From: Botryllus schlosseri
Taxonomy: Eukaryota
DNA length: 64,000 nt
Reading direction: 5' to 3'
NCBI GenBank assembly: GCA_051294905.1
Contig: CM119373.1
Span: 1,118,001 to 1,182,000, forward strand
In this document: positions 1-43,871 of the stretch, piece by piece
Position numbering within the stretch: the first letter of the stretch is position 1
Layout: each line of letters opens with the position of its first letter
Notes under the pieces: model-generated
Databases searched by the model: none
The model's input: only the letters and a program-made list of their open reading frames with translations
Told to the model about the DNA's origin: nothing
Position numbers and translations under genes: made by a program

Positions 1-490
1 CTGATTTATATGATCCCTAATTCGAAGGTATAAGGCATGACAATTTTCGCAGCTAACTCCAAAAAGTCCACCTCGTCGTCATAAAGTGCTTCTAAAAGCG
101 CTGGTGAATAAATTGTGAGTTTCGCTTTACAGCAGCGCGTGGGAATTCAAAAATCCAAACATATCATTTAAGTGGTGTATGCCGGTAAACCTAGTTTCAG
201 CTTCAAGTTTAAATCTGTCCAAAGCTTGAAACATGCATCGTCTAACTTCTTCAACAACACTGAGGCCAGCATTTTCTGATTGTTCGCCACGCATTCTCCT
301 TTTTCGGCGATTTCTCCGAACAATCGGCTATTTCGGAGTGGTTCCATCGCCATGTTAACATATTAATTCGTGTTTTCGGAATCAGCGCGACACCAGCTTT
401 CGATTGAGACCTGTTTGATTAAATTTTAGCTCGCGGGACGCCAGCTATAGGACTACCAATTACGTTCTTTTAGCCGGTTGTGTACACTGT

Positions 491-745
491 GCCGAGCGAG
501 ATAGTGTAATGGTGATGCGTCCGGCTTCTCGCTCGGTGGGTCGCGGGTTCGATACCCGGCCGGGTCAGACCAAAAACTCGAAAACTGGTATCCGCAGTTA
601 TCCCGCTAGGCGCTAAGCGATCACGGAGGAGAAAAAACGGGGGTGCAGACTAGATGACCTTACTATTAGGTGCGTATCGCATCTCCGTCGTCAAAGCATC
701 TCGATGGTGTAGGCGAAAAAGAATATCATATCTGTCTCTCCATCT
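491..745 (+). mobile_element. tRNA-derived SINE (Meta-domain-like core)
   Basis: Pol III A box TAGTGTAATGG (502-512) and B box GGTTCGATACC (546-556), then GGGTCAGACCAAAAACTCGAAAACTGGTATCCGCAGTTATCCCGCTAGGCGC, which resembles the MetaSINE core as I recall it. 3' boundary approximate. Confidence 0.7.
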
Positions 746-835
746 CTCACTGTGCAGCCTCATTTTGCCACCCCCTTGGAGCCTGGCGCCCCTGGCGCAG
801 AGCCAGAACCGCCAAGTGGCTGCTACGCCACTGGT

Positions 836-2270
836 CATGTGTACTGGAAATGGCCGTCCCGAGTATTTTTCTGCACAGAATCGCCGCGGCAGCCGCCCTC
901 TTAGTTCTGCCTATCCCGTCATAGAGTTGACTCGCCACCTCCGTACTGTGCGACGATGACATCGCTATATGATATTGTCCCTTGTCGTCTAGCGAACTCG
1001 CCATCATCGCGACTATTTTACGGAGATGCTGGTACGTTAGGCGGATTTCGTGGCGACCGAGATATTCGACGACACAAACCGATAAATTTCGGAACGGCTT
1101 GCCGTTCGAGTTTCGCAACGCTACCTCCTCCCGCGACAAATGCAAGTCTGGATTTGTTTGCTTGGATTTGTTTGCTTGCAAATCTGAATTCAAAGAGGTT
1201 TGAGACCACTCCATTACACGTTCATATCTTCGTAGCACCTACCTGTTTGAATCGGTCATAGTCTTGTTGACCCATTACTAACAAACCCCGATTTGAAGGG
1301 CAATTGTTGTGGTTCCCTGTACGACTAACATCGACGGATCGTCAACGGAACGGACCGCGTGGCCAAGCTCATATCCGGTCACTCTACGGAAATATGACGA
1401 TCTCGTGCCATTTTCGCGGCCAAGCAATCGCGCACGTTTTCGTCCGTTATCGGTTGATGAAGGTTTCGCTTTTGATCATTCTAAAAATAACACGCCTATT
1501 AAACTTCAAACTGTACGATATAAAATCTTGGTACGAAACTTTTGATATTCGGCCAATTTTCATTGATGTTCATGTCGAGAGACAAACGTTTCTCATGCTG
1601 GCGCTTTTTCCTCATATTGGTCGCTCTTGAGTACGTGACAATGATTTGTAACGCTCTTAGTTGGTTGTCCGGCGACACGTTATCCAATATCGCCGGATGC
1701 TGCAGACGCGCTAATTCCAGAAATCCCTTTAGCGACGCCAGGGTTTCGAAAATCGTGCTTGCGGACAGTCTTCCATCGGCGTTACAAATATACGTTACTA
1801 TTGTTCCGGCCCGTCTACCACAAACTTCTTGAAAACCAATTTCAGTTTGCTGACGACAATTTTTGTGTTTGCTTGGCAAGCGATTGCACTTGGCGATGCC
1901 TCTCGTACCTGTAACCAAGTGACACATTACTATCAGAGTTACTCACGCTTGAAAAGTCGGACTCGAAGGTCAACTTTTGAAAATTTCCCTTGTAGGTGTC
2001 GCAACCTACCCCAAAGCCGTCCCGTATTCTATCCGAATGGGTAATCCTCCGGTGCGTTGCTATACAGGCCGTGGCCACTGATCTCGAACAGAGAGCATAC
2101 CGAGACCGTGGGCGACATTGCTTGATGTCTTGCCTGGGCTCGCGCAAGTAGCGAGCATAGACGATATGATGCAAAGTGCTACCTGAGTGACACCTGCGCC
2201 GCCATACTTACGGCAACAAAAATGATCAGATGAAGCGAATGGAAACATAGCAACAAAATTTACCACAACA
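836..2270 (-). pseudogene. Tyrosine recombinase (integrase-family) pseudogene, intronless and frameshifted
   Basis: Stitched minus-strand frames give STIFETLASLKGFLE...LLGRENGTRSSYFRRVTGYELGHA (catalytic R, ~1398-1414)...ALRNSNGKPF...LTYQHLRKIVA (HxxR-type, 1017-1028)...IAMSSSHSTEVASQLY (H ~945-953, Y ~921-929). The order R..HxxR..H..Y matches tyrosine recombinases. 5' boundary uncertain. Confidence 0.7.
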
Positions 2271-2899
2271 CATGAACACTAAACCAAAATATCGCGTAGT
2301 AAATCGAAGCAACTTGATTTTTGTATAAAGAAAATGATAAAAGAAACTAATGTCTTTCAATATTCACGATACATAAATCCCGTCAGAGTCATGCTAGTGC
2401 CGGAGCTTACATATCCAGTAGCTTAGGTAGCTAGCATTCGTCCTCTTCCTCTTCCTGCAACGACGTCGCATGTTGATGTTCTAGGACAGGGGTTCTCAAA
2501 GGGTGGGCCATGGCCACTAGTGGGCCAGTTATTTGGGTGGGCCACAGAGCTATTTCTAAAATTGTAGCATTCGTGAAAGTTTGGTTGCATTTTATTTGTT
2601 CATATTAAAAAAGTATACTGATGTTATCGAATTTTCATCCGACTCTGAGACTTAGTGGCACGTATGTAGTCACGAATGTACAAGTCGAAATAGGAGGGGA
2701 TACGGCGGCTTTTGCCCCCCCCCCCCCCCCCGCTATGCCAACCTCCGGCCAACAGCAACGAAAATAATTTCGATTATATAACTGAAAGTTAATGCTGAAA
2801 TATCCAAGTATTCCGGCAGGGTCATAATGGATTGAGGAGTTAGCACAGCACATTATTCTTCGGAGTCGGTCAGCGGTAATCTTCAGCAACTAGTAGAGA

Positions 2900-3720
2900 A
2901 TTTGAGAGAACATTGCTCAATCAATCGCGGCATCGACAGGAAATTACCGCGATTCACCGCAAAAAAGGCAACAGAGCCCATCGAACGAACAACCAAGAAT
3001 ATTGATATCTATCTCACTGGATTGGTCCTATTTCCACCCACCTTCAAAAACAATTGATTTCCGCAGTCAGTAAGTGTTACGACACATTGAAAACTAATGT
3101 GATATTTACGATAACGGAACTGCTCCCTTCAGCATGCAAAGACGTGCTTCCAGCACTTCGAAAAAGTAACGTAGTGTATGAATTTAAGTGCCACTGTGAT
3201 TGTGGTTTCGTATCAAGGACGTCGAAGCATTTGCAGGAACGCATAAAACAGCATGTCCCTAGATTTATCAAAGTACGTGCGTGCATCACGCTCCGTGAAA
3301 AGCTCACCCTTGACTCATCCGCTTTAGCTTGACGTTGAGCGTTTAAAGGTCATAAATTCTGCCATTGGCAAACATCTGTTGGATAATGCCGCCTGTGCGA
3401 AAAATTATCGAGACGACATATTTCGCATCATCGTGAGGGGCCGCTCACGCTTTCATCTGTGTGCCTAGGGGTCGACCTTTATCAAAATAAATCAGCCCAA
3501 ACTTCGTCAACAAAAAGAGTTCATGTATCACCTTAAAATTGTACATTGAACGCTCTCTTGTCATGCTGGTAACGTCATATTTCGAGATACGATTGTTAAT
3601 GCACAAATGTTCTTGCCGACTCTCTACCAGTCACTGACGATCATCACTGACGAGTGTCAGCCGAAAATATTTGGGTTTCATTTCAATATGAATATACTAT
3701 ACAATTGTATATTGAAGCTC
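2900..3720 (+). mobile_element. Penelope-like retroelement 3' fragment (GIY-YIG endonuclease plus terminal repeat)
   Basis: ORF 3054-3332 KSNVVYEFKCHCDCGFVSRTSKHLQERIKQHVP continues after a break as SAIGKHLLDN...FHLCA.STFIKINQPKL.QQKEF, typical of a PLE GIY-YIG domain. The downstream sequence is shared with other copies in the window. Confidence 0.85.
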
Positions 3721-4799
3721 TGTGTCTGCAAGAAACTCTCTGGTCATATCTGTAAAATTTAGAATGAATTTAGTATTACCTAGGATATATAATAATAATT
3801 TATCACCCTCCCTAATTCGGAGAATTGGTAATGAAAAATACATTGTTTGAAAGCAATTTAGACCCCAAGTAATGAATCAAATATTATTGAATAAAATATG
3901 TTAGGTACGTCCGCCATAAACTCTGCTTTCAATGTATATGCTACTTACCACCCATACATCATATTTCTTTCTTAAATAGGATTGAAGGATTTAATGCATG
4001 ATTTACAGCGATAAAATGTGAACATCACAAATGAACCATGCTGAATTGAAAATCTTCGCGCCAAAACCAGGCTTGGCAGTTATCACCCAATAGCTTTCAA
4101 AATAAGTCGTGCGTAAAAATAAATTCATCATAATTTCTAACGTACTTCTGGTAAGTAACATATCATATCAAAGTTGGCTTCGACATATCTGTCCATGATA
4201 TGTTATTGTTTGTGTTATTATGTTAGTTATTCTAAATAACTTTACAGAAACACTGCTGAAACTAGCGCCAGTATTGATTCTGTTATACTGGAGCCGGCCC
4301 TCGGCTCCTGTGACTTGGTAGGCTAATGATTAGTTCTCTGATTTCAACGTGTATTTATAGTTGCCCTATAAGGACTACTCGTGCTGTTGAGTTGTCTCTT
4401 CTGCAATAAAAGTGTCGACATCGATGACACGAAAAAAATTCAGATTTTCGTACGGATGCACACGGATGCAGGGGACAAGTTACAAAAAAAAGTAGCCAGA
4501 ATATGTTTTTAAGGTATAAGGTATGGGAATCGGACTGAAAACCTGGACTTTTTAAAGTCGGTCAATTCTGAACAACCCTAATGTATATATATATATAATC
4601 TCGTCGTGACCACCAAGTTAGAGCCACTTTACTGGTTAATGGCTGTATTCAAGCAATCTGTCATCGTAATTTGACTATTTGAGAATAAGGGTGCGGTAAT
4701 GCTTACTATCTTTAATTAAAAAGTTGAACATTCCAGTTACAAACAAAGGCATGGATTAGGCTGGGATTTAGAGCCAGCCTTTGGCATAATTTTACTACT

Positions 4800-5470
4800 A
4801 ACTTTTGTATTTAAAATATCTTCAATATACAATTAAATAGTGTATTCATATTTAAATAAACCCGAATATTTTCGGCTGACACTCATCAGGGGTAATTGTC
4901 AGGAACTTGTAGCGAATTGGAAAGAACATTGGAAAGAACATTGTATATCAACAATCGTAACACAAAATATGACGTCACCAGCATGAAATTTCAAACGAGA
5001 AAGCGTTCAATGTACTATTTTTCAGGGGGTGCACGAACTCCTTTTGTTGACAGAGTTTGGGTTGGTGTATTTTGATAAGAGTCGACTCCAAGGCACACAA
5101 ATGAAAGTGTGAAGGGCCCCTCCCAACGACGCGAGATCTGTTGCATCGATAGTTATTCGCACTAATCGGATTATCTAATAGATGTTTGTCGATGGCAGAA
5201 TTAATGGCCTTTGATCTGTCAGCATCGAGCTTAAGTGGATGAGTTGAGGGTGAGCTTCTCATCGAGCCTGATGCACGTGTTCCCGTGTTCCATTTTGGTT
5301 TATGTGTTCCTGCAAACGCTTTGACGTTCTTTCTACGTAGCCAGAATCACAGTGGCACTTATATATACCAAAACTACATTACTTTGTTAAGTGCAGGGAG
5401 CACGTCTTTGCAAAGTGTCTGCAGGAACGCATAAACCAGCATGTCCCCAGATTTACCAGAACACGTGCAT
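4800..5470 (-). mobile_element. Second Penelope-like 3' fragment, inverted relative to the first
   Basis: ORF 4975-5262 NSAIDKHLLDN...HFHLCALESTLIKIHQPKLCQQKEF is homologous to ~3350-3550. The segment 5420-5470 is a short piece in the opposite orientation. Confidence 0.85.
4861..4892 (-). ncRNA. Minimal type I hammerhead ribozyme in PLE terminal repeat
   Basis: Minus strand reads CCC-CUGAUGA-GUGUCAGCC-GAAA-AUAU-UC-GGG: full core, CCC/GGG stem I, palindromic AAUAUU stem III, UUC cleavage triplet. Confidence 0.75.
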
Positions 5471-5789: not shown

Positions 5790-6620
5790 AATAATGGTAA
5801 TCAATTGACATTACGATGCATTCTGATACTGAAAGCCATACGTGTGAAGTTTGTGGAAAGGGATTTGCAGTCAAGTGTAGACTCGATGCTCATATTGCTG
5901 TTCATTCTGGTGTCAGAAGCCATGAATGTGGAATTTGTGGGAAAAGATTTACTGCCAAGCGTAGTCTCAATACTCACATTCCTATTCATTCTAGCGTCAA
6001 GAGCCATGAATGTGAAATTTGTGGAAAGGATTTGCTATCAAGGCTGATCTACATACTCACATATCTATACATGCTGGTGTCAAAAGCCACAAATGTGATG
6101 TTTGTGGAAAAGGATTTGCTCGGAAACCACACTTGAAGAATCATTTTAAAATTCATTCTGGTGATATCTGTGGAAAAGGATTCGCTTCCAAGCAGAGACT
6201 CAATACTCACATTCCTATTCATTCTAGCGTCAAGAGCCATAAATGTGAAATTTGTGGAAAAGGATTTGCTATCAAGGGTGATCTAAAAATACTCACATAT
6301 CTATACATGCTGGTGTCAAAATCCACAAATGTGATGTTTGTGGAAAAGGATTTGCTCGGAAACCACACTTGAAGAATCATTTTAAAATTCATTCTGGTGA
6401 AAAAAGCCATGAATATGATAACTGTGGAAAAGGATTTGCTTCCAAGCAGAGTCTCGATACTCATATTGCTATTCATTCTGGCATCAAAAGCCATAATTTG
6501 TGGGAAAGGATTTGCTTCCAAGCAGAGACTCGATACTCATATTGCTATTCATTCTGGCATCAAAAGCAATAAATGTGAAATTTGTGGGAAAGGATTTGGT
6601 GTGCAGCGTTTCTCAAGGTA
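5790..6620 (+). pseudogene. C2H2 zinc-finger array (~9-10 fingers), frameshifted
   Basis: Repeated CxxCGKGF...L..H...HSG.KSH units spread over several frames (ORFs 5816, 6019, 6369, 6397). Internal duplication ~5960-6160 / 6200-6400. Confidence 0.9.
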
Positions 6621-30189: not shown

Positions 30190-31461
30190 TGCAAAGATGT
30201 CCACATGCTATAGTTATATTCATTTATGTTTATTTCACATCGTTTACACGTCACGGCCTCTCCCATTTTCGATGCAATTCAACGGTGATCCATCGTTTGA
30301 TTGACGATTCCGCAGAACATTTGGGCGTTTAGTCAACTCCAACTTCGTGATGGGGTTTCTAATAATCGGACGATTGAGATTTGGATATGTGTTTTCGATG
30401 CGTCGCCCGAATTCGACACCTTTCATACGAAGTACGTACTCGCATTGCGGAAACCATTTAGCATGTTCCGTCCAAACCTCGTCTGTCCGGTCCCACCGAA
30501 GTCCACCATTGCTGTAAAAACATTTTGTCTTGTCCGAATCGATGTAATAAAACCCCGCATTTGCTAGTTGCTCAACGCTAGCATTGATTTTAGCGGGATC
30601 CCAACCTTCGTCGAAGGTTGCTATTCTTCGTGACAAGGACGACATTACAGGATTCGCGGGGTTTTAGGCAAGGGAATAGTTCAGCAAGATAGTGTTTTTC
30701 ATCCTCGGAGGGCTCATCTGGTTCTTTCACATTGATAGTGAGCCGTCGTATTTTCTCGTGAAGCAAGTCGTCCAAATTCCCGCGGTCGTGCTCAGCTAGT
30801 GCGATATTTCCTGAAAAGCTACCACGCGCGAAAGTACATTTTGGAAAATATGTGTAAGGTGTATTTCCGATACGTCGTCTATGGGTTTCCAGTTGCGAAG
30901 AACACCGAAGCAGCTAAAGCACTGCGTTCTGTCTAAGTTACCGAGATAGAAAAACCCTTGTTTCGCCAACTCGCCTACTGCGTGGGGTATTGGATAGCTA
31001 GGCCATTTCTTGAAGGTTTCGCGTCGCTTCGATTCCCTTTTCAAGTCGAGGTTCTTAATCAAACACGCGTGTTCTCGGTCAATGATATTCGCAAGTTTTA
31101 TGTCGCTGTTATTGACTTGCGGTGTCTCGATTTGGAGCTTAAACCCCCGTAATAGACTCCTGAAGTTCGATCTTTCAACGGGAATATTGAATACGTGTCG
31201 AACACAGCTCGCTTCGTGACAACTTACATTCGAATCCTTTTCAACCCATTTTTCGAGTGAAATACTGCATCCGAAACATTTAATTTTGTCTTCGAACCCT
31301 AGCCAGTAATATCCGTCAGATGCTAAATCTGCACGTTTTGGGTATGATAATCTCGAAAACCTGGCGAACGTTGCGAGTCTATATAATTCGGAGAGGTGAG
31401 AGCCCGACGCGATATATACACATCCTTGTACTGGCGGATCCGGATCGAAGTGTTTTTCCAT
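30190..31461 (-). pseudogene. Inhibitor of apoptosis (3 BIR + truncated RING), intronless, frameshifted
   Basis: BIR1 ELYRLATF...KIKCFGC...W...H...C; BIR2 RRETFKKWP...LAKQGFFYLGNLDRTQCFSC...W...H; BIR3 RRIATF...LANAGFYY...KCFYS...EHAKWFPQC; RING remnant CKRC...ACGHLC near 30250-30190. Split across ORFs 30796-31461, 30590-30775 and 30244-30645. Confidence 0.92.
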
Positions 31462-33302
31462 AACAGTCTCTCATTTTGGGAAACTATTTGAGAAATATAT
31501 CATCCTAAAAACACACAAAACCATTACTACGAATCTTCGATAGCAATTCACATATTGGCAACAATAATGTCATTTGCTGTGAATTCAAAACCATAGGTGA
31601 ATATTGAAATGTCACGAAGACAGAGCTCGTTCTCTGGGTAATTTTTAATCTTAGGTGCTGACTTTTTCCGGCAAATTACCATCGCCAAAGGAGCGATACA
31701 AGACACTTAATGTCAATACAAAAACGAACGGACAACATAATTAGCAGGACTTACCTTGCAAATATGCGTATTGCATGAAAACAGATTGTTTTCAGACAGC
31801 AATATGGGAGACAGGTGTTTATTTCCATCGACAAAGAGCAGTTGGCACGCACTTGGTTATCACACTGATATTTCATAAGGAGATCCGATATCGATAAATA
31901 GCATTAAATGTGCGAACAATGCAACTGTTACTGGCCATATCGATTCATAAACAATATTCTGCTACCACGACAACTTTTCAAGTGACTCAACGTTGTAATG
32001 CTCACTCTTAGTATAGGTATTTGAATAAGTTTTTATGTATGGCATTCGATTCTACCGTCATATGTCTTAGTTCAACAACTTGGATACGAATTATAGCTAC
32101 ACAAACGTTTTATAGTCGAGAATCTACTGTTTGGGGTAGTCACACAAGATCAGAACTATAACGAATCGCACCATTTTCACGAACGTCAGCGTTGACATCG
32201 GAATATTCTGTAATCCATTATAGATCACAAGCTTCTTTTCACGAGTTTCATTCTCACATCGGGAGATCAGTAATAATCGGCTCTATGTCGTCGCTTTCGG
32301 GAATATACAAGGAAACACTCCGAAATAGAATATTTATAATAGAGAGGTAAACAATCAGATTTGACCATCTTCTCATATGGTTATTCGATCAACTGCCATG
32401 GACGCTCTCGATACACCAGCCTCTGAATTACAAGGCATCGGTGCTGTATTCCAAGCCATATATAAGAGTCTCGTATAATAATGCACGGCGGTTTCCGCTG
32501 AATATTTGAGACACACATTTTTTTTTTGACCGTCACGCTCTGCAAGAGACCGTATTTTAATGCTCAACGAAAATGATCCCCTAAAACTACTTGAAGTGGA
32601 AGTAGAATTGACTGCCTTTACATCTACTCAAGTAAGTAAGTAGTTTTGAAAACAGTCTTAATCTGTTCGCATGGACTGTCAAAATCTGCGAATCGAGCTA
32701 TGTGGCAGGGGCAGAGAGCTTGATTCGTATTAATGCATCATGGGAGGTATCAATTCCCGACAGAATAAGCATTGTTTCGCATCATGGGCATGCAATTTAT
32801 AGTATTGATATGAAAAGGCGACACCAACACTTTGTTTACTAGAAGACCCCGTTTTTAGAGAATATCATGGCATGGCGCCCTGCCTTATATTATAAGGCCC
32901 CAAGTTTAGGCGAACAGCAACACGTGGAAGTTGTATCGGATACGGTTTCATCACTTTTACGTGATTAGTATACGGTAATAACAAATATTGTGGATCGTTA
33001 AAGTTATATTTATGGCCGTATTACGAAAACAAGGATTAATTCGAGAATTGCGTAATACTCGGATAGAAACTCGGCCTACAGTAAACTCCGGTTGGTATTA
33101 CGAAAAAAATGTAATTCGTCGCCTACTCAATACTCGCATTACATGTAATTCGCGTCATATATCTTGGTCATATTTGCGATACCGGTACATGAATTTATCG
33201 TTACGCGAGCGGTTCGTGTTTTCACGGTGATTTTCAGCATCAATGATCGATTGATCGGTCATACCTGGCTCATCTTATAGAACAACAAAAGGAGCATGTC
33301 AC

Positions 33303-33892: not shown

Positions 33893-34224
33893 ATGTCACT
33901 ATAGATAACTCAGGTAATACATTCCATTTCGATGGTTGCCCGTACGTACAGTAGGGTGCCAAATTTGGGAATTTGGGAATATTTCAAGGCTGTTTCGCAG
34001 TATGTATTCGTGTACCTAAGGAACAGTTCAGGATTACTAAAGGAAGCATATGATGTCTAACGATCAATAAATCGTTATCTTGCAATAAATTTTGAGTTAC
34101 GCTACTGCATCTGCTATCGTTACAAAACTGACGGCGGTGTAAACCTTGCTGTGGTGAAGCTATTACTTTTTAACGATTAGCTATTTTTCTTAGTTCTCTA
34201 GTTCATAGCCACAAGATTTTAAAT

Positions 34225-34890
34225 ATGGATTCAAGTGTTGAAAAGAGGACAAACTATTCAGAGTATGAAAAAGAGTTTTTGCTGAATTTGGTGGAAAAGT
34301 GGCCTATATTAAAGGACAAATCAACAAATAAATTTACAAACAATTCCAAGGAGTTGGCCTGGACAAAGATTCAGGTTGAGTTTAATATGGATAGCCATAC
34401 ACGGCAAATTGACAATTGGATGAAGCTAAGAGCTCAATATAAGAACCTGAAGGCAAAGGCGGGAAAAGAAATGACAAAGAAAATGTGAAGACTGGTGGTG
34501 GATCCTTCAAGGATAAAGAATTAACTCCAATTTCGCAGCAGTTTTGTAGGCCTACTTCTTTTGCCACTCTTCGGTGTACATTGGCATCACTCAGTGAACA
34601 TTGAAACATATCTCAATCTTGAATTGAAATCGGAATATATTATTGCTGCATGAATTTTGTGACAGAACAACAACAGAACAAGACATATTGGTATCTTTTC
34701 AGATGATACGTCGATATCTGCACCTCCTAAACCAACCTGTTCTGGAAAGAGGAAACTTGCTCAGCAGTCTAAATCCCGGAATGAGCTGTACAGATTGCAA
34801 GCAATCAAACTAAAAAAACAGATAGAGCTCCTAAACAAAAAGCTGAAATTGGCAGAAATGGAACTTGAACAGCGTTCCATCAAAAAGTAG
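34225..34890 (+). pseudogene. Harbinger Myb/SANT-like DNA-binding protein
   Basis: KRTNYSEYEKEFLLNLV...KELAWTKIQVEFN...LRAQYKNLKAKA. The expected KTGGG is out of frame near 34488. Final coiled-coil exon 34703-34890. Confidence 0.85.
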
Positions 34891-35974
34891 ACGTGATTAA
34901 TAGATATTTTTGAAGAGTCGTAATGCTCGTTCCTAACAGCTTCATTATTTCGTTTTAGCCAGCACTGTTCTTTTGTGATTTAATATATTTTCTTTATTGC
35001 AATAGAATTGGATCCATATCGCCGCTGTGGAATCAAAGTAGCTATTGGCCATTTTTGTAAGATTTTTATTCTCTTTTGATAACATCATGGCCATGACCAT
35101 GTCTATTTTTGTGTGTCACATTGTTTCTAACATGAACATGGTCAAGATATGACCGAAGAAAATTAGACACGTTCGATTCCAGAGCGATAATACGTTTGTA
35201 TTCCAATACTGTGCTGCAAAGGGCTAATTGTCGAATATATTTTTGTACTGTGGTTCTACTTTGCTACTGCTAAAATGTCTCATTACTAGAGCGATTTTTT
35301 TACCTAAAAACGGCTGCTTCTGCTTCACTTAAGATACTGCAGTATGTTGAGTGTAACACCACATCAACCTAAAATTTGTTGCATTTGGCGTTTATGATTC
35401 ACAATAGGCCGTCTAAAGCGGTAGGGGCTACACAAGCTGTAAAATGTCAATAAGTTCACCGAGAGCGCAGGTGAAACGAATGCAGGTTGCAAAAAATTTC
35501 GACATTATTTTGACAATATTGACATGTTGGATATATTGCCATACTCATTACCAATGTCATGCTGATTATACTGTGCTTGCTTATATGTTTCTTTGTTCTG
35601 CCACTCAATAAAGTTTCTTTGTGCTGGGCTGCTGCTCAATAAAAGAGTGCTTCAGACATCTAGTATTATTCATTCCACTGCAGGTACCATTTAAATCAGC
35701 AATAGCAAACAATCTGTAGAATTGTGACAAGGTATATTTACTAGTAGTAACTTGTCAATATGTATTTCAGTAGTAAGATAAGAACCATGTCAAATAGCCA
35801 TTGTATCATTGTAACGGAATAAAATTTCCAAGATTAATCCAATTTGAAGGCTTATTTTTGCTTATGTCAGGGAGATTGGAGATTGAACAATGGAAATTGT
35901 TTTTTTAGGAAACATCTATTCAAAAACTGTACAGTTATCTTATCATTCGCAACTGCACCACATCACATTCGGTT

Positions 35975-37520
35975 CTACGCAGATGAAAAGTGCAATCTTA
36001 TCAGCTGCTGACGGATCGCAGAAGCTTGTGCGTAGTCTGTACACTGGCCTTGTGGTGTAGAATCACTAGGATCCATTCCATCATCTGTAAATTCATCAAG
36101 TGATGCCTCGATCATGCCACGTTGCCTGAGAAAGTTGTATATGCAGACGCAGGCTGGAATCACGTTCAAAGTTGTGTCGACTTTTAACCTCATGCCTGTT
36201 TTCAGGCAGGAAAATACTCGCTTCAAAACACCAAACGCGCGTTCGATTGTCAATCTGGTCTTTTTGTGGCTTCTGTTGTAACACAGCTCAGGCTCACGCA
36301 AAGGATTGCGTAACGGTGACATTAGATAAGTAGTCAATGGGTAGCCTTGGTCGCCAAGCAACAGTCCATTTGAGGTCGACTGGCTTTCCAGATAACCATA
36401 TAATGCAGAATTATGGAATATCCTTGCATCATGTGTCCGTACCATTTTGCACAAATGTTCGTAAAGACGAGTCTTGCATCACATACAGCCTGAAACATGA
36501 ATGTATGTATTAGTATTGTGAATTACTATTCTATACATCACTTGCATCACTGGACAAAAAAAATTTCATTAAATAGTTATTTTTAAACCACAACAAACAC
36601 CCAAACCAAATTGTATGGTGTAACGTCATGTTTTGTTTGCTAGGAATATTTGCATTATCATCAAGGCAGCAACATAATATGGGGGCTCAGTGTAGTTAGG
36701 CCTACTTATCAGCAACAGCATGACCAATTGACTATCACTAGGCAGTGTTCCCCATGAATATGTCAAAATTTATGGCATTTATGATTGGGTTAAGGTTGCG
36801 GTAGAGGTAACGGTAGAATGTTCCTATCATACCCTATACGAATTATAAATTATAATTATTTTAGTGCAGGTGTTGCCGATATACATCATTATAAACTTCG
36901 GTTATGATATTCACCTGGCAGTTTATGGAAAAGTAACCTTTTCGGTTCCTGAGCCGTTCTGCATTTTCACCACCTGGGCTCTGGATGCGAACATGAGTGC
37001 AATCAATTGCACCTATTACATCTGGAAATGATGCAATAGAGTAAAATTCTTCCTTTACACTGTGCAAGTTCATTTGTGGCCATCGTACGAAAGTCCCTAT
37101 ATTACCAACTATGACGGCCGAAACCTGTGAAAAAAGTACTGGATTTGCAAAAGAACAAACAATCAATCACTGTCAATTCATTACCTCTTTGATCACATTA
37201 GATACAGTCGGCTGCGAAATACCTTCCAAATCAGCAGAAAGCAATTGGAATGACCCACTGCTTGTGAAGCGTAGGAATATGAGCATCTTATGCAGTATTG
37301 GTAGGGCAACACCTTTTCTAGAATGCCTGAAGTCATTCTGAATGACTGCAATAAAGTCATGAAGACCTTGTTTTGTAAAGCGATACCGTTGTCTAAATTC
37401 CGCATCTGTGTTCTTTTCCATCGGGTTCTGCAAATCCGCCAGTCGACGTTTTGGCACTCTTTCAACAGCTTCGCCATCATATTCCTCCTCACAAAACCTC
37501 ATAAACTCCAAAAAGTCCAT
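35975..37520 (-). pseudogene. Harbinger (HARBI1-like) DDE transposase, 3 exons, one frameshift
   Basis: Exons 37520-37185, 37124-36915 and 36489-35975 with GT-AG introns in phase 0. Motifs FRQRYRF, GAIDCTH, NRKGYFSINCQ, THDARIF, LLGDQGY, TIERAFGVLK. Frameshift near 36437 (WYG/THD). Confidence 0.92.
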
Positions 37521-39601
37521 GTTATCGTCAGCAGTCGCCCAATGCATCTATCGGGAACCCGGACAATGATAGATTATTCCCCGATTTCGGAGACTTGCAT
37601 TTTAACAGTATCTGGGTCTCACAAAGCGCAGAAATTGATTTCATAATACCATCGCGGCTCAGGTGGCGCTCGGTATTACGAGAGTCGGCGATGTGTGACC
37701 GCAAGTAATGCCCGTCTTACAAAAACACTATTTTAATACGAAACAGAGGATAACTTCGCAAATTATCCTTAATTCGAGTGTTACATTCGTTTCGTAATAC
37801 GGGCATTAGTGTAGCTTTATTTTCGGAAAATAGAGGCATTACTACACTTGCTTATATGCTTCAACGTGTATCTTCTGCAGACAAAAGAACTAAAAGTAAT
37901 TCGAACTTGAAGTATGATACTTGCATTGAAATACAAATACCACTTCTTAAAATCGGAAAATACATTGCATGTCTTTTGTCCATAAAACTTCAAAGGTGAT
38001 CTGCTAAATCAGGTGTAACGTTCAAAAAAGCTGGATTTTCCAGATAAGCATAGGTAATTGCTAGATTGCGAATCGGTAGTTTTAAACGTTATGGTGGGCC
38101 ATATTTACTGTGATGAAATATTTGATATGGGCGACAATGCGGTGTGATAGGAACCAAACAATCCGGTATCTAAATTATATTCACTGATACTTTCATCAAA
38201 ACATATTTGTCACTTCATCACTACTATGCGCGAAGCGCAACAAAATTTCTGGGCTTTACTTGACTTTTATAAGTATTAAATCTTGATCCTCCGTGAAAAC
38301 AGCCCCGAAACTTCTCAGGCTAGCTTTCGTATTGGGGGATAAAACTACTTCTACTTGATAAAATGAAAATAGCGAAAAGTAAGTAAGTAGATCACAAAAT
38401 ATTACGAAGTCAAAATAGAAGTAGAGAAAATCATATCTACTTGAGTAAGTACCAGAAGTAGAGCAGAACTACTTGAGTACTTCCAAAAATAGAAGTACTT
38501 CGTTACTGACCACCTCTGACCGTTACTGTATTGTAGCTGTTCTTGGGAGAATTTAGTGTATCATTGTCAGTTTATTAATATTTTCATCGTTTCAAAACAC
38601 TATACAAAACTGCGATACAATGAAAGACATAAGGCGTCGAAACGAGTTGGAGCTTGGAGTAGTCATTGAAATCAGACACCCACCTTGGCATAGGTAAAGT
38701 AGAAAAGAGGAATGCCCACCGAATGAAAACTAAAGCAAAGAATATGAAAGGAAAGCGACAAAATGAGGTGGCATGGGGCGGAAAGCCAGATCGATATGTT
38801 AGGTCGTGGTCCGATAATCTGACTAGTATTCTAGTGTGTATGTGTGCGTGACTATTGTTATGTCTTTGTACAATGCATGTCGATCGCTGCTTCATCGCAA
38901 TGTTTTTTTTCCAATAACGCTTTGTGCTTGGTATTGTAGCATGGTACGAATGTTCGACTATATTTTCAGACTGCGCATGATTGTTTCCTGACATGAAGGA
39001 TTGTTTACCGCGGCGAACCGTCCAAGATCGCACCGTCGTAATCAATATTCACATTTCCATACACCAAATCGCCCTTGAATGCGTTAGCCGATAACGACAA
39101 ATCTTGTATTATTGCCGCCTTAAAAGATGGTTCGCTTGCAAGATTGAAAATATTAGGAATGAAATTTACATATCTCAATATATTGAAAATACGTCCTACT
39201 GGAGTTGATAGCATGGCGGGTAGAGTTTGATTCGTTGTTTGTGATATTCATGGGGCTTGTAGACTACTAATACGGTCATTTACACCAGGATGGTTTTCGT
39301 CATTTGTGTCCCTTAGCTACCGACTTGTAGCACTGCCCACTTCTGAGCTTCTAGAAGGCGTCGCTTACACGGATTATATGAAAAATAGGAGCCGGATCAC
39401 CGATTCATTGCACCACTTCACAAGCGATTGTGGACAGAGACAATGGGAATTTGGGTCGCAGGCTATAATCACTCAGCAAGTACGTCTATTTGCCTAGAGA
39501 TAAGTTTTTTATCACTCGAATATAACGCCAAATATTCCCAAACTCATATTCAGTGAAATTAAGCCATTCCACCAATATCCTACGTAACGAGGCGAACTTT
39601 T

Positions 39602-43199: not shown

Positions 43200-43871
43200 T
43201 GAGCGCTACTCTTATATTGGACAAATGCTGACTAGGGCTCAGACTATGGCGTGTCTTTTCTGCGCGGTTATTGAGGCTCGCGGCAACGGACTTTCGCGCC
43301 ACATTTCATTTTCAAGAGGACGCCGGTAGCGGGAAAGACCTTGCTATGTGATATTTCATTCCCGCCGCGTATTTCCAGTCTAGTTCCGCACGATGCGTCG
43401 GGTGTGGGTCAGTTACACATGGACTCACACTCTCGCGTGTTGAAATGCGATGACGCAGGTCTATATTTTTGGGGTCATTCCGGCATGATGTCGGCCGTTG
43501 AGCAGATGTTCCATGGGTCATGGTCGGCCAAGACACGCGGGTCGAAACAAGCCAACGGTTTAACTGTGGTCGAAGCTACCACCAATGCGCCTGACCCATT
43601 CACGTTACTGGTTGAATGTGGAGAAAATCGAGAGGCTTGGGAAAGACGTTTTCTAGTGTTCGAATTAACCGGACATTTTGTCCCGCGTCTCAGTAGCAGG
43701 CCGATTTCTAGCGCGACGTGCGAGTTAATATTAGACCGACTCGTAGCCGACCTCGTCCGCGCCGGCATTGCGGGCCTAGAACAAGACTTATGCGCCGATC
43801 ATTTTCGCACGGTTTCCGATTACCACGCCTGCCTCACCAACATGATGATGGCCGTATCAGACTATAGATAA
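43200..43871 (+). pseudogene. Superfamily 3 (viral-type) helicase, frameshifted at Walker A
   Basis: FHFQEDAGSG|KTLLCDI (Walker A, 43304-43350, one-base shift), VLKCDD (Walker B), MFHGSWSAKTRG (B'), VEATTN (motif C) and AWERRFLVFEL (Arg finger), with the compact SF3 spacing. Confidence 0.75.

Follow-up and report, generated by a model that had tools for sequence, protein, structure and literature searches.

A decayed tyrosine recombinase gene of Botryllus schlosseri and its relatives in rDNA-bearing elements at telomere repeats

In a 64,000-nucleotide stretch of the Botryllus schlosseri genome (G000:C3:1118001-1182000, in the following the window) a preliminary description had recognised the motifs of a tyrosine recombinase (YR), split into fragments by the open reading frame track, and had proposed this gene as the best candidate for an integrase of the surrounding virus-like DNA. 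The locus raises the question whether a genuine recombinase gene is present here and, if so, to which kind of element it belonged. The genome searched comprises 495.5 Mb in 219 contigs and includes TTAGGG arrays.

The recombinase gene in the window

On the minus strand the motifs NGTRS (starting at 1412), QHLRK (1031), SHS (953) and SQLY (932) indeed follow each other in the order R, HxxR-like, H and Y. They are, however, not spread over three frames as had been thought, but lie in a single frame with stop codons between them; frame switches are present in the upstream parts of the gene. When the genome was searched at the DNA level with this stretch, 31 matches including the query itself were obtained, the other 30 having identities of 64-89%; with one exon of an intact copy as query, 62 candidates yielded 55 matches. 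Since there are 30 further genomic matches and since R, H-x-x-R, H and Y fall on the conserved positions of the family, the motifs are more than a chance occurrence. The N of NGTRS is a change private to the window copy, the relatives having mostly S or T, and the pattern "N.xRS" given in the preliminary description is therefore accidental.

The homology extends from 834 to 2157. Of the extent of 836 to 2270 originally assigned to the gene, the segment 2158-2270 is outside the gene and belongs to single-copy unrelated DNA at 2158-2465. The splitting of the reading frame track was correctly noticed and has two causes, namely introns of about 60 nt and decay. For the alignment (Table 1) we used as reference the natural copy L022 on contig C30, which is a sister of the window copy.

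Table 1. Features of the recombinase copy and of the helicase-bearing remnant in the window
Feature	Position	Strand	Remarks
Right part of a 1809-bp insertion (G000:C3:1117025-1118833)	1..833		15-bp inverted ends
8-bp target-site duplication, one copy	834..841		same 8 bases at the far junction, L025:8517-8524
Second catalytic-domain exon	835..1183	-	His 1026-1028, Arg 1020-1022, His 948-950 and Tyr 921-923 kept
Intron (61 nt in sister copy)	1184..1242	-	GT..AG retained
First catalytic-domain exon	1243..1480	-	13-, 22- and 1-nt deletions; Arg 1401-1403 kept
Intron (60 nt in sister copy)	1481..1538	-	donor dinucleotide not GT
SAM-like core-binding domain exon	1539..1908	-	two 1-nt and two 3-nt deletions
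5' part of an intron of about 64 nt	1909..1946	-	37-nt deletion removes the 3' splice site; spliced in run X9 (sister copy)
Remnant of the second mapped exon (Cys/His, zinc-finger-like by eye)	1947..2156	-	210 of 214 exon bases align to L022
Single-copy DNA, not part of the gene	2158..2270		inside the extent first assigned to the gene
Rearranged remnant of a clade II-type helicase-bearing element	42890..46611		matches the element on C5; 41 kb from the YR copy

The window copy is dead, as is evident from its frameshifts, lost splice sites, a stop codon, a lost lysine and an insertion. The gene is 5'-truncated, the homology ending at 2156-2157, and there is one in-frame stop among exons 2-5. In addition to the deletions, the second catalytic-domain exon is thrown out of frame by a tandem duplication of 14 nt at 1149-1178. 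Five of the six catalytic residues are retained; the missing one is the conserved Lys (position 1303-1305). The last catalytic exon is interrupted by the 1809-bp insertion, which is probably of the hAT type as judged by the 8-bp duplication and the end motif, and because this insertion splits the gene its 3' end is outside the window. The remaining part of the gene lies at G000:C3:1116251-1117030 and likewise contains stops. A short repeat at 545-748 of the window, presumably a tRNA-derived SINE-like sequence in which no tRNA was called, also cuts the 5' side of a dispersed copy in L069.

Closest to the window copy, with 88.7% DNA identity, is another dispersed and broken copy, located at C3:8.99 Mb. 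Four dispersed sister copies retain a piece of spacer repeat (about 76%) just 5' of the gene, and the window copy has lost this flank. In itself the window copy is an ordinary pseudogene and the interest lies in its family: the window almost certainly holds a dead YR relic of a family of telomeric elements.

A spliced and conserved recombinase family

Splicing and purifying selection are both evident in the YR gene family. In L022, GT..AG introns of 58-64 nt are predicted, and five such joints (58-64 nt) are spliced in transcript contigs of the runs X9 and X18, whose RNA status is presumed; a sixth intron is hinted at only by loose ends of the X9/X18 contigs. The contig from run X9 hardly differs from the C30-type copy. 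In the raw-read data only 15 reads (X23) and 34 reads (X21) were obtained, with no joints listed. Measured against the C30 unit (L022), dN/dS is 0.12-0.26 in all nine other copies and 0.31 in the window copy.

The encoded protein combines Cys/His motifs that by eye resemble zinc fingers with a SAM-like domain and the YR catalytic domain. For the SAM-like domain PF02899 gave E=0.017 on the sister copy and a C2H2 profile gave E=0.03 on a relative, both below the cut-off, the Cys/His motif being read by eye. A tree of exon 5 (29 rows, 126 columns) splits the helicase-linked YRs (clade II) from the window and telomeric copies (clade I) at 97/96, and the YRs of clade II are about 40% identical to the window copy. 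In the alignment R, K, H-x-x-R, H and Y are conserved in this order across both clades. R, K, H-x-x-R, H/W and Y are the catalytic residues of Cre and lambda Int.

Two structure models, both of modest quality, were compared with known folds. The first was made from the natural frame of the clade II relative L045, with X at two intronic stops (pLDDT 67). Its best Foldseek rows in the PDB are XerH, the Tn1549 integrase and Cre with E values of 2.4e-3 to 5.5e-3 and probabilities of 0.99-1.00; no PDB match reached E<=0.001. In the VIA comparison the top 25 rows all belong to the YR/TopIB superfamily, and the matches to XerA (Z 11.5, rmsd 19.1, 243 residues aligned) and XerH (Z 10.8, rmsd 7.4, 272 aligned) span both domains. 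The second model, the catalytic domain of the clade I relative L039 (pLDDT 57), shows the same ranking with Z up to 7.1, the match to Cre (Z 7.1, rmsd 3.2, 121 aligned) being middling. Among viral structures the rows for the L045 model are phage integrases and VLF-1; no nimaviral protein is among the BFVD rows listed, which excludes nothing. Both the H-x-x-R motif and a match over two domains distinguish recombinases from topoisomerases, and for this reason we favour a recombinase. Judged by its modelled fold, the family is a tyrosine recombinase with a core-binding and a catalytic domain resembling Xer, Cre and the Tn1549 integrase. The identification as a YR is thus upheld by the fold of a natural relative together with the conserved R-K-HxxR-H-Y residues; the fold matches come from natural relatives, whereas no Pfam YR profile scored above the cut-off for three read-through frames of the window or for the relatives.

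Atlas neighbours (score 0.93) carry PF00589 on 29-37% of their members. Weakly similar, at rank 12 with a score of 0.92, is a group with the catalytic domain of telomere resolvases (PF16684 on 64% of the members). A protelomerase was considered and rejected, the TelK and TelA structures ranking well below Xer and Cre. The structure of QRICH1 reached Z 5.7-5.8, below or level with the Xer/Cre rows. Neither DUF3504 nor DUF3435 gave a Pfam match at E<=1; for DUF3435 a negative result is not decisive in so divergent a family. Searching the PDB by sequence gave no match for L039 and one irrelevant match for the family profile, and the PHROGs search gave nothing meaningful. Outside this genome HMMER found only five homologous fragments, all unnamed, among 1.84 billion representatives. 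A search for proteins of near-full length gave just four exon fragments, likewise unnamed, word-indexed protein searches showed no long relatives (weak evidence) and scans of viral and metagenome contigs showed no relatives.

Intact relatives at telomere repeats

Inspection of the neighbourhoods of the relatives showed intact clade I copies in telomeric rDNA-bearing elements and clade II copies near helicase ORFs. The intact clade I relatives lie in elements of 14-23 kb which are bounded by CCCT in register with TTAGGG arrays, the YR gene sitting at one end, back to back with rDNA-derived parts. In a genome scan a 20-nt motif of the right end occurs at 20 places and the left-end motif at 16 places, the control giving 0. 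Outside arrays the right end continues into CCCTAACC in 8/8 cases; these CCCTAACC tracts range from about one unit to many, and some consist of only one or two units with different DNA behind. All three left ends outside arrays abut long telomere arrays. Copies bounded on both sides measure 15.7 kb (C2), 22.8 kb (C4) and 14.0 kb (C114), and in these as well as in the array copies CCCT is found at both ends. In the arrays on C30 and C132, 12 of the 13 junctions have the arrangement right end-CCCT-left end with four bases shared, one of them being visible over 5 nt only; at the remaining junction 31 telomere units separate the ends. No clear lox-like inverted arms were seen by eye around the end-to-end junction.

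A second subfamily (C9, C49, C16) with 58-59% identity in exon 5 has a fixed end of a different sequence, which likewise adjoins CCCTAA at 4/4 places. The copies on C3, C11, C16 and C22 are without a left end and look telomere-healed, and those on C22 and C11 share their downstream flank. The contig C30 has not been placed on a chromosome, and the C16 copy is preceded by a gap in the assembly. Internal telomere arrays at G000:C16:22219323-22223697 and 22270577-22271050 flank element copies and main-class rDNA; one of them comes directly after a gap of 100 N, and they are possibly chromosome-end pieces placed internally. In 23 frames scanned from two intact elements no Pfam match above the cut-off was obtained, and the YR is the only enzyme found.

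Bodies derived from rDNA were mapped in the copies on C2, C4, C9, C11, C16, C22, C30, C49 and C114, and the copies at the start of C3 have only satellite and spacer-repeat pieces. The bodies consist of rDNA spacer, 5' ETS and rRNA genes that have decayed to differing degrees. The C30 unit of 16.7-18.9 kb, arranged head to tail in an array, contains 18S, 5.8S and a 28S of 1.7 kb, the 28S of the main rDNA having 3.7 kb. The divergence between this unit and the main rDNA amounts to 3.0% in 18S, 1.9% in 5.8S, 4.3-5.4% in 28S, 16.6% in ITS1 and 12.7% in ITS2. Because the 18S changes are clustered and the Rfam scores are nearly equal (1670.5 versus 1675.5), this rDNA either diverged under constraint or was partly converted by the main rDNA. 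A test for compensatory changes in three 18S stretches was mixed with 2 two-sided changes, 8 one-sided changes and 5 broken pairs. In the C22 copy 18S and 5.8S are about 100% like the main rDNA and telomere repeats cap it at 28S nt 915. In C2, C4, C114 and C11 the 5' ETS and spacer repeats are 93-97% like the main rDNA and the rRNA genes are only scraps of 70-79%. A YR gene in every main rDNA unit was ruled out, the main array on C28 being without a YR match.

The assembly holds two classes of rDNA, that of the elements on C30, C132 and at C16:22226410-22230873 and the main class on C28, C13 and at C16:22.27-22.29 Mb. In the former, 28S nt 1064-2874 and 2945-3144 are missing, and the 18S sequences of the two classes differ by 3%. 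A 45-nt piece of 28S (nt 2490-2534), which presumably lies just upstream of the R2 site, is repeated 3-5 times at 94-100% in L097:5866-6254 (C4), with equivalents on C2, C114, C9, C49 and C16, where the other rRNA remnants are at 70-79%. A main-class unit (G000:C16:22274506-22280962) carries a 6.45-kb insertion at 28S nt ~2567-2573, which we take to be the site of the R2 retrotransposon. At L057:4850-4983 a 134-nt piece of 28S interrupts a dispersed YR copy; the piece presumably ends at the R2 site, as the 5' end of an R2-type element would.

Movement of the family and alternative readings

From this one assembly, in which no excised circle, empty site or new insertion was seen, we consider it rather probable that the YR family moves as a telomere-targeting element. 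The YR would recombine the CCCT at either end to release a circle in which the two ends meet, similar to a Crypton, and would then recombine this junction into (CCCTAA)n tracts, the C30 array being a concatemer of such units. The element may have originated from a YR cassette lodged in the rDNA spacer which took neighbouring rDNA along, and sequence may still pass between it and the main rDNA. Functions of the rDNA spacer in replication or as promoter could possibly serve the amplification of the concatemers, the spacer staying 93-97% like the main rDNA while the rRNA genes decay. The window copy would be an older stray relic of the lineage of telomeric elements with its ends lost. Because neither telomeric end is present, the window copy and its dispersed sisters are tied to this mechanism by descent only. 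The end-to-end junction could also have arisen if one deletion had joined two CCCT copies and the product had then been amplified in tandem in the ordinary way. The complete scheme of an animal YR element with a captured 45S rDNA body, CCCT-core circle, concatemers, integration into TTAGGG tracts and a fossil copy in the window is put forward tentatively, and in its entirety we regard it as doubtful.

Among known systems the family appears, by description, to work most like a repeat-targeting Crypton (CryptonV). In the accessible text on Cryptons excision as a circle and reintegration are proposed (Kojima and Jurka 2011, PMC3212892; Barua and Muszewska 2026, PMC13465315), and some CryptonV are described as targeting microsatellites (PMC8869645). 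Likewise, here the YR is the sole enzyme found, a 4-bp direct repeat at both ends matches the target, the circle model fits the end-to-end junction, and the target is a specific repeat as in some CryptonV. In contrast to Cryptons the Botryllus element is 14-23 kb long, carries rDNA and satellites, has the telomere repeat as target and forms a concatemer array; no match to DUF3504 or another Pfam YR profile above the cut-off was obtained, and no named Crypton sequence was among the protein-search matches. The YRs of endogenous nimaviruses that target telomeres or 28S, as far as described in the available part of Kawato et al. 2023 (PMC10871703), share the insertion in telomere repeats and concatemers separated by telomere tracts; their architecture of C2H2, SAM-like and YR domains resembles the one suggested here by matches below the cut-off, and the 28S-targeting group has multi-exon YR genes as here. 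Insertion in telomere repeats is found for the intact relatives of our family but not for the window copy with its lost ends. The nimaviral YRs, however, are part of viral genomes of about 280-400 kb (same source), whereas here the elements have 14-23 kb and no viral genes were found in them, and the protein, structure and contig searches gave no sequence link to nimaviral YRs.

Pokey, a piggyBac DDE transposon of Daphnia, resembles the family in carrying repeats derived from the rDNA intergenic spacer, but according to the accessible text it has a DDE enzyme, inserts in 28S and carries short spacer repeats only (PMC10946416). Table 2 of the same paper has no element carrying 18S-5.8S-28S, and its available text is without tyrosine recombinases. 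The fungal Starships, in what is accessible of PMC13465315, likewise are large elements with a terminal YR, DNA captured from the host and short direct repeats; they differ by being fungal, the DUF3435 captain gave no match here, and the cargo here is rDNA. DIRS and Ngaro elements also use a YR integrase, but no RT or RNase H was found in the Botryllus elements and their ends as mapped are neither split direct nor long inverted repeats. The preliminary view that this is not an obvious DIRS element is supported, since RT and RNase H were found neither in the 54 of 61 window ORFs scanned nor in the 23 intact-element frames. A published description of a Botryllus YR-rDNA telomeric element was not found in the literature outside Repbase Reports and most subscription papers.

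If the proposed mechanism is true, a spliced eukaryotic YR that recognises TTAGGG would stand out as a rare case of a telomere-specific recombinase in a non-viral setting, and an element bearing complete rRNA genes would offer a testable mechanism for the frequent location of rDNA at chromosome ends, that is, an enzyme-driven route by which rDNA and variant 18S genes are seeded there. It would also account for the divergent 18S classes in one genome (3.0% in 18S, 13-17% in ITS), a possible source of error in barcoding and assembly.

The main alternative is that the enzyme does not move the unit. The YR gene could be a passenger in subtelomeric repeats derived from the rDNA spacer, spread by ectopic recombination or break-induced copying and telomere healing. 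The clustering of the copies at chromosome ends speaks for this, as do the several copies without a left end that are telomere-capped elsewhere, e.g., C22 within 28S, and the ample homology which the spacer repeats offer to the main rDNA; moreover, in fission yeast rDNA reaches chromosome ends without a recombinase, as stated in the accessible part of PMC5959237. It speaks against such passive spreading that two subfamilies with different ends both halt at the same CCCTAA register, that right ends precede very short tracts with unrelated DNA behind, and that the gene is spliced and under purifying selection, and we hold this explanation to be unlikely. Expression and purifying selection would equally suit a YR that became a host gene for telomeres or rDNA arrays, e.g., for resolving fused or circular forms, of which the window copy would be a pseudogene, and the weak similarity to the catalytic domains of telomere resolvases points the same way. 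A mobile family is nevertheless the better fit to the many dispersed dead copies and to the related clade in large helicase-bearing elements; no single conserved locus was seen and homologous fragments outside the genome are limited to the five mentioned above, so that a host gene appears very improbable.

The role first suggested for the window YR, integrase of the virus-like DNA around it, is largely refuted and we regard it as most improbable. This proposal has in its favour that the window contains a remnant with a P-loop ORF (43275-43871), which has 47 matches in the genome, the intact ones lying 10-24 kb from YR genes of the family on C1, C5 and C16, and that three clade I copies in the crowded region of C3 at 6.9-9.0 Mb lie 12-25 kb from helicase matches. 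By its Walker A/B/C motifs the ORF is tentatively labelled an SF3 helicase, a label with no support from Pfam, PDB or PHROGs. Off C3, however, all four copies with a helicase partner belong to clade II, whereas the window copy is clade I, as placed by exon 5 only. There is no helicase match on C2, C4, C9, C22, C30, C49, C114 or C132. The matches to the C5 element are confined to 42.9-46.6 kb of the window, save short scattered ones which we read as common repeats, and none is near 834-2157 or in the 38 kb to its left. Remnants of BIR, Ig-like, zinc-finger and Harbinger-type sequences lie between the YR copy and the helicase remnant, and no capsid or polymerase family match was found in the window ORFs scanned. 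It is thus unlikely that both were parts of one shared element in the window. What stands of the original proposal is the kinship, in that the same YR family serves helicase-bearing elements; for the window copy, being dead and of clade I next to a remnant of clade II type, it is unsupported.

Decayed YR and helicase-like copies of both clades form a dense cluster at G000:C3:4.8-9.2 Mb. In the window itself an inverted pair of ORF remnants at 2869-5470 (3006-3332 on the plus and 4975-5346 on the minus strand) matches a repeat in L066; we assume a GIY-YIG-like motif in them, for which there was no Pfam support. Two BIR (inhibitor of apoptosis) ORF pieces at 30244-31470 are probably one broken or spliced gene. 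A Myb/SANT-like ORF and DDE_Tnp_4 pieces on opposite strands at 34174-37547 presumably represent a decayed Harbinger-type transposon, and at 5801-6598 there is a frameshifted C2H2 zinc-finger array with a period of 84 bp.
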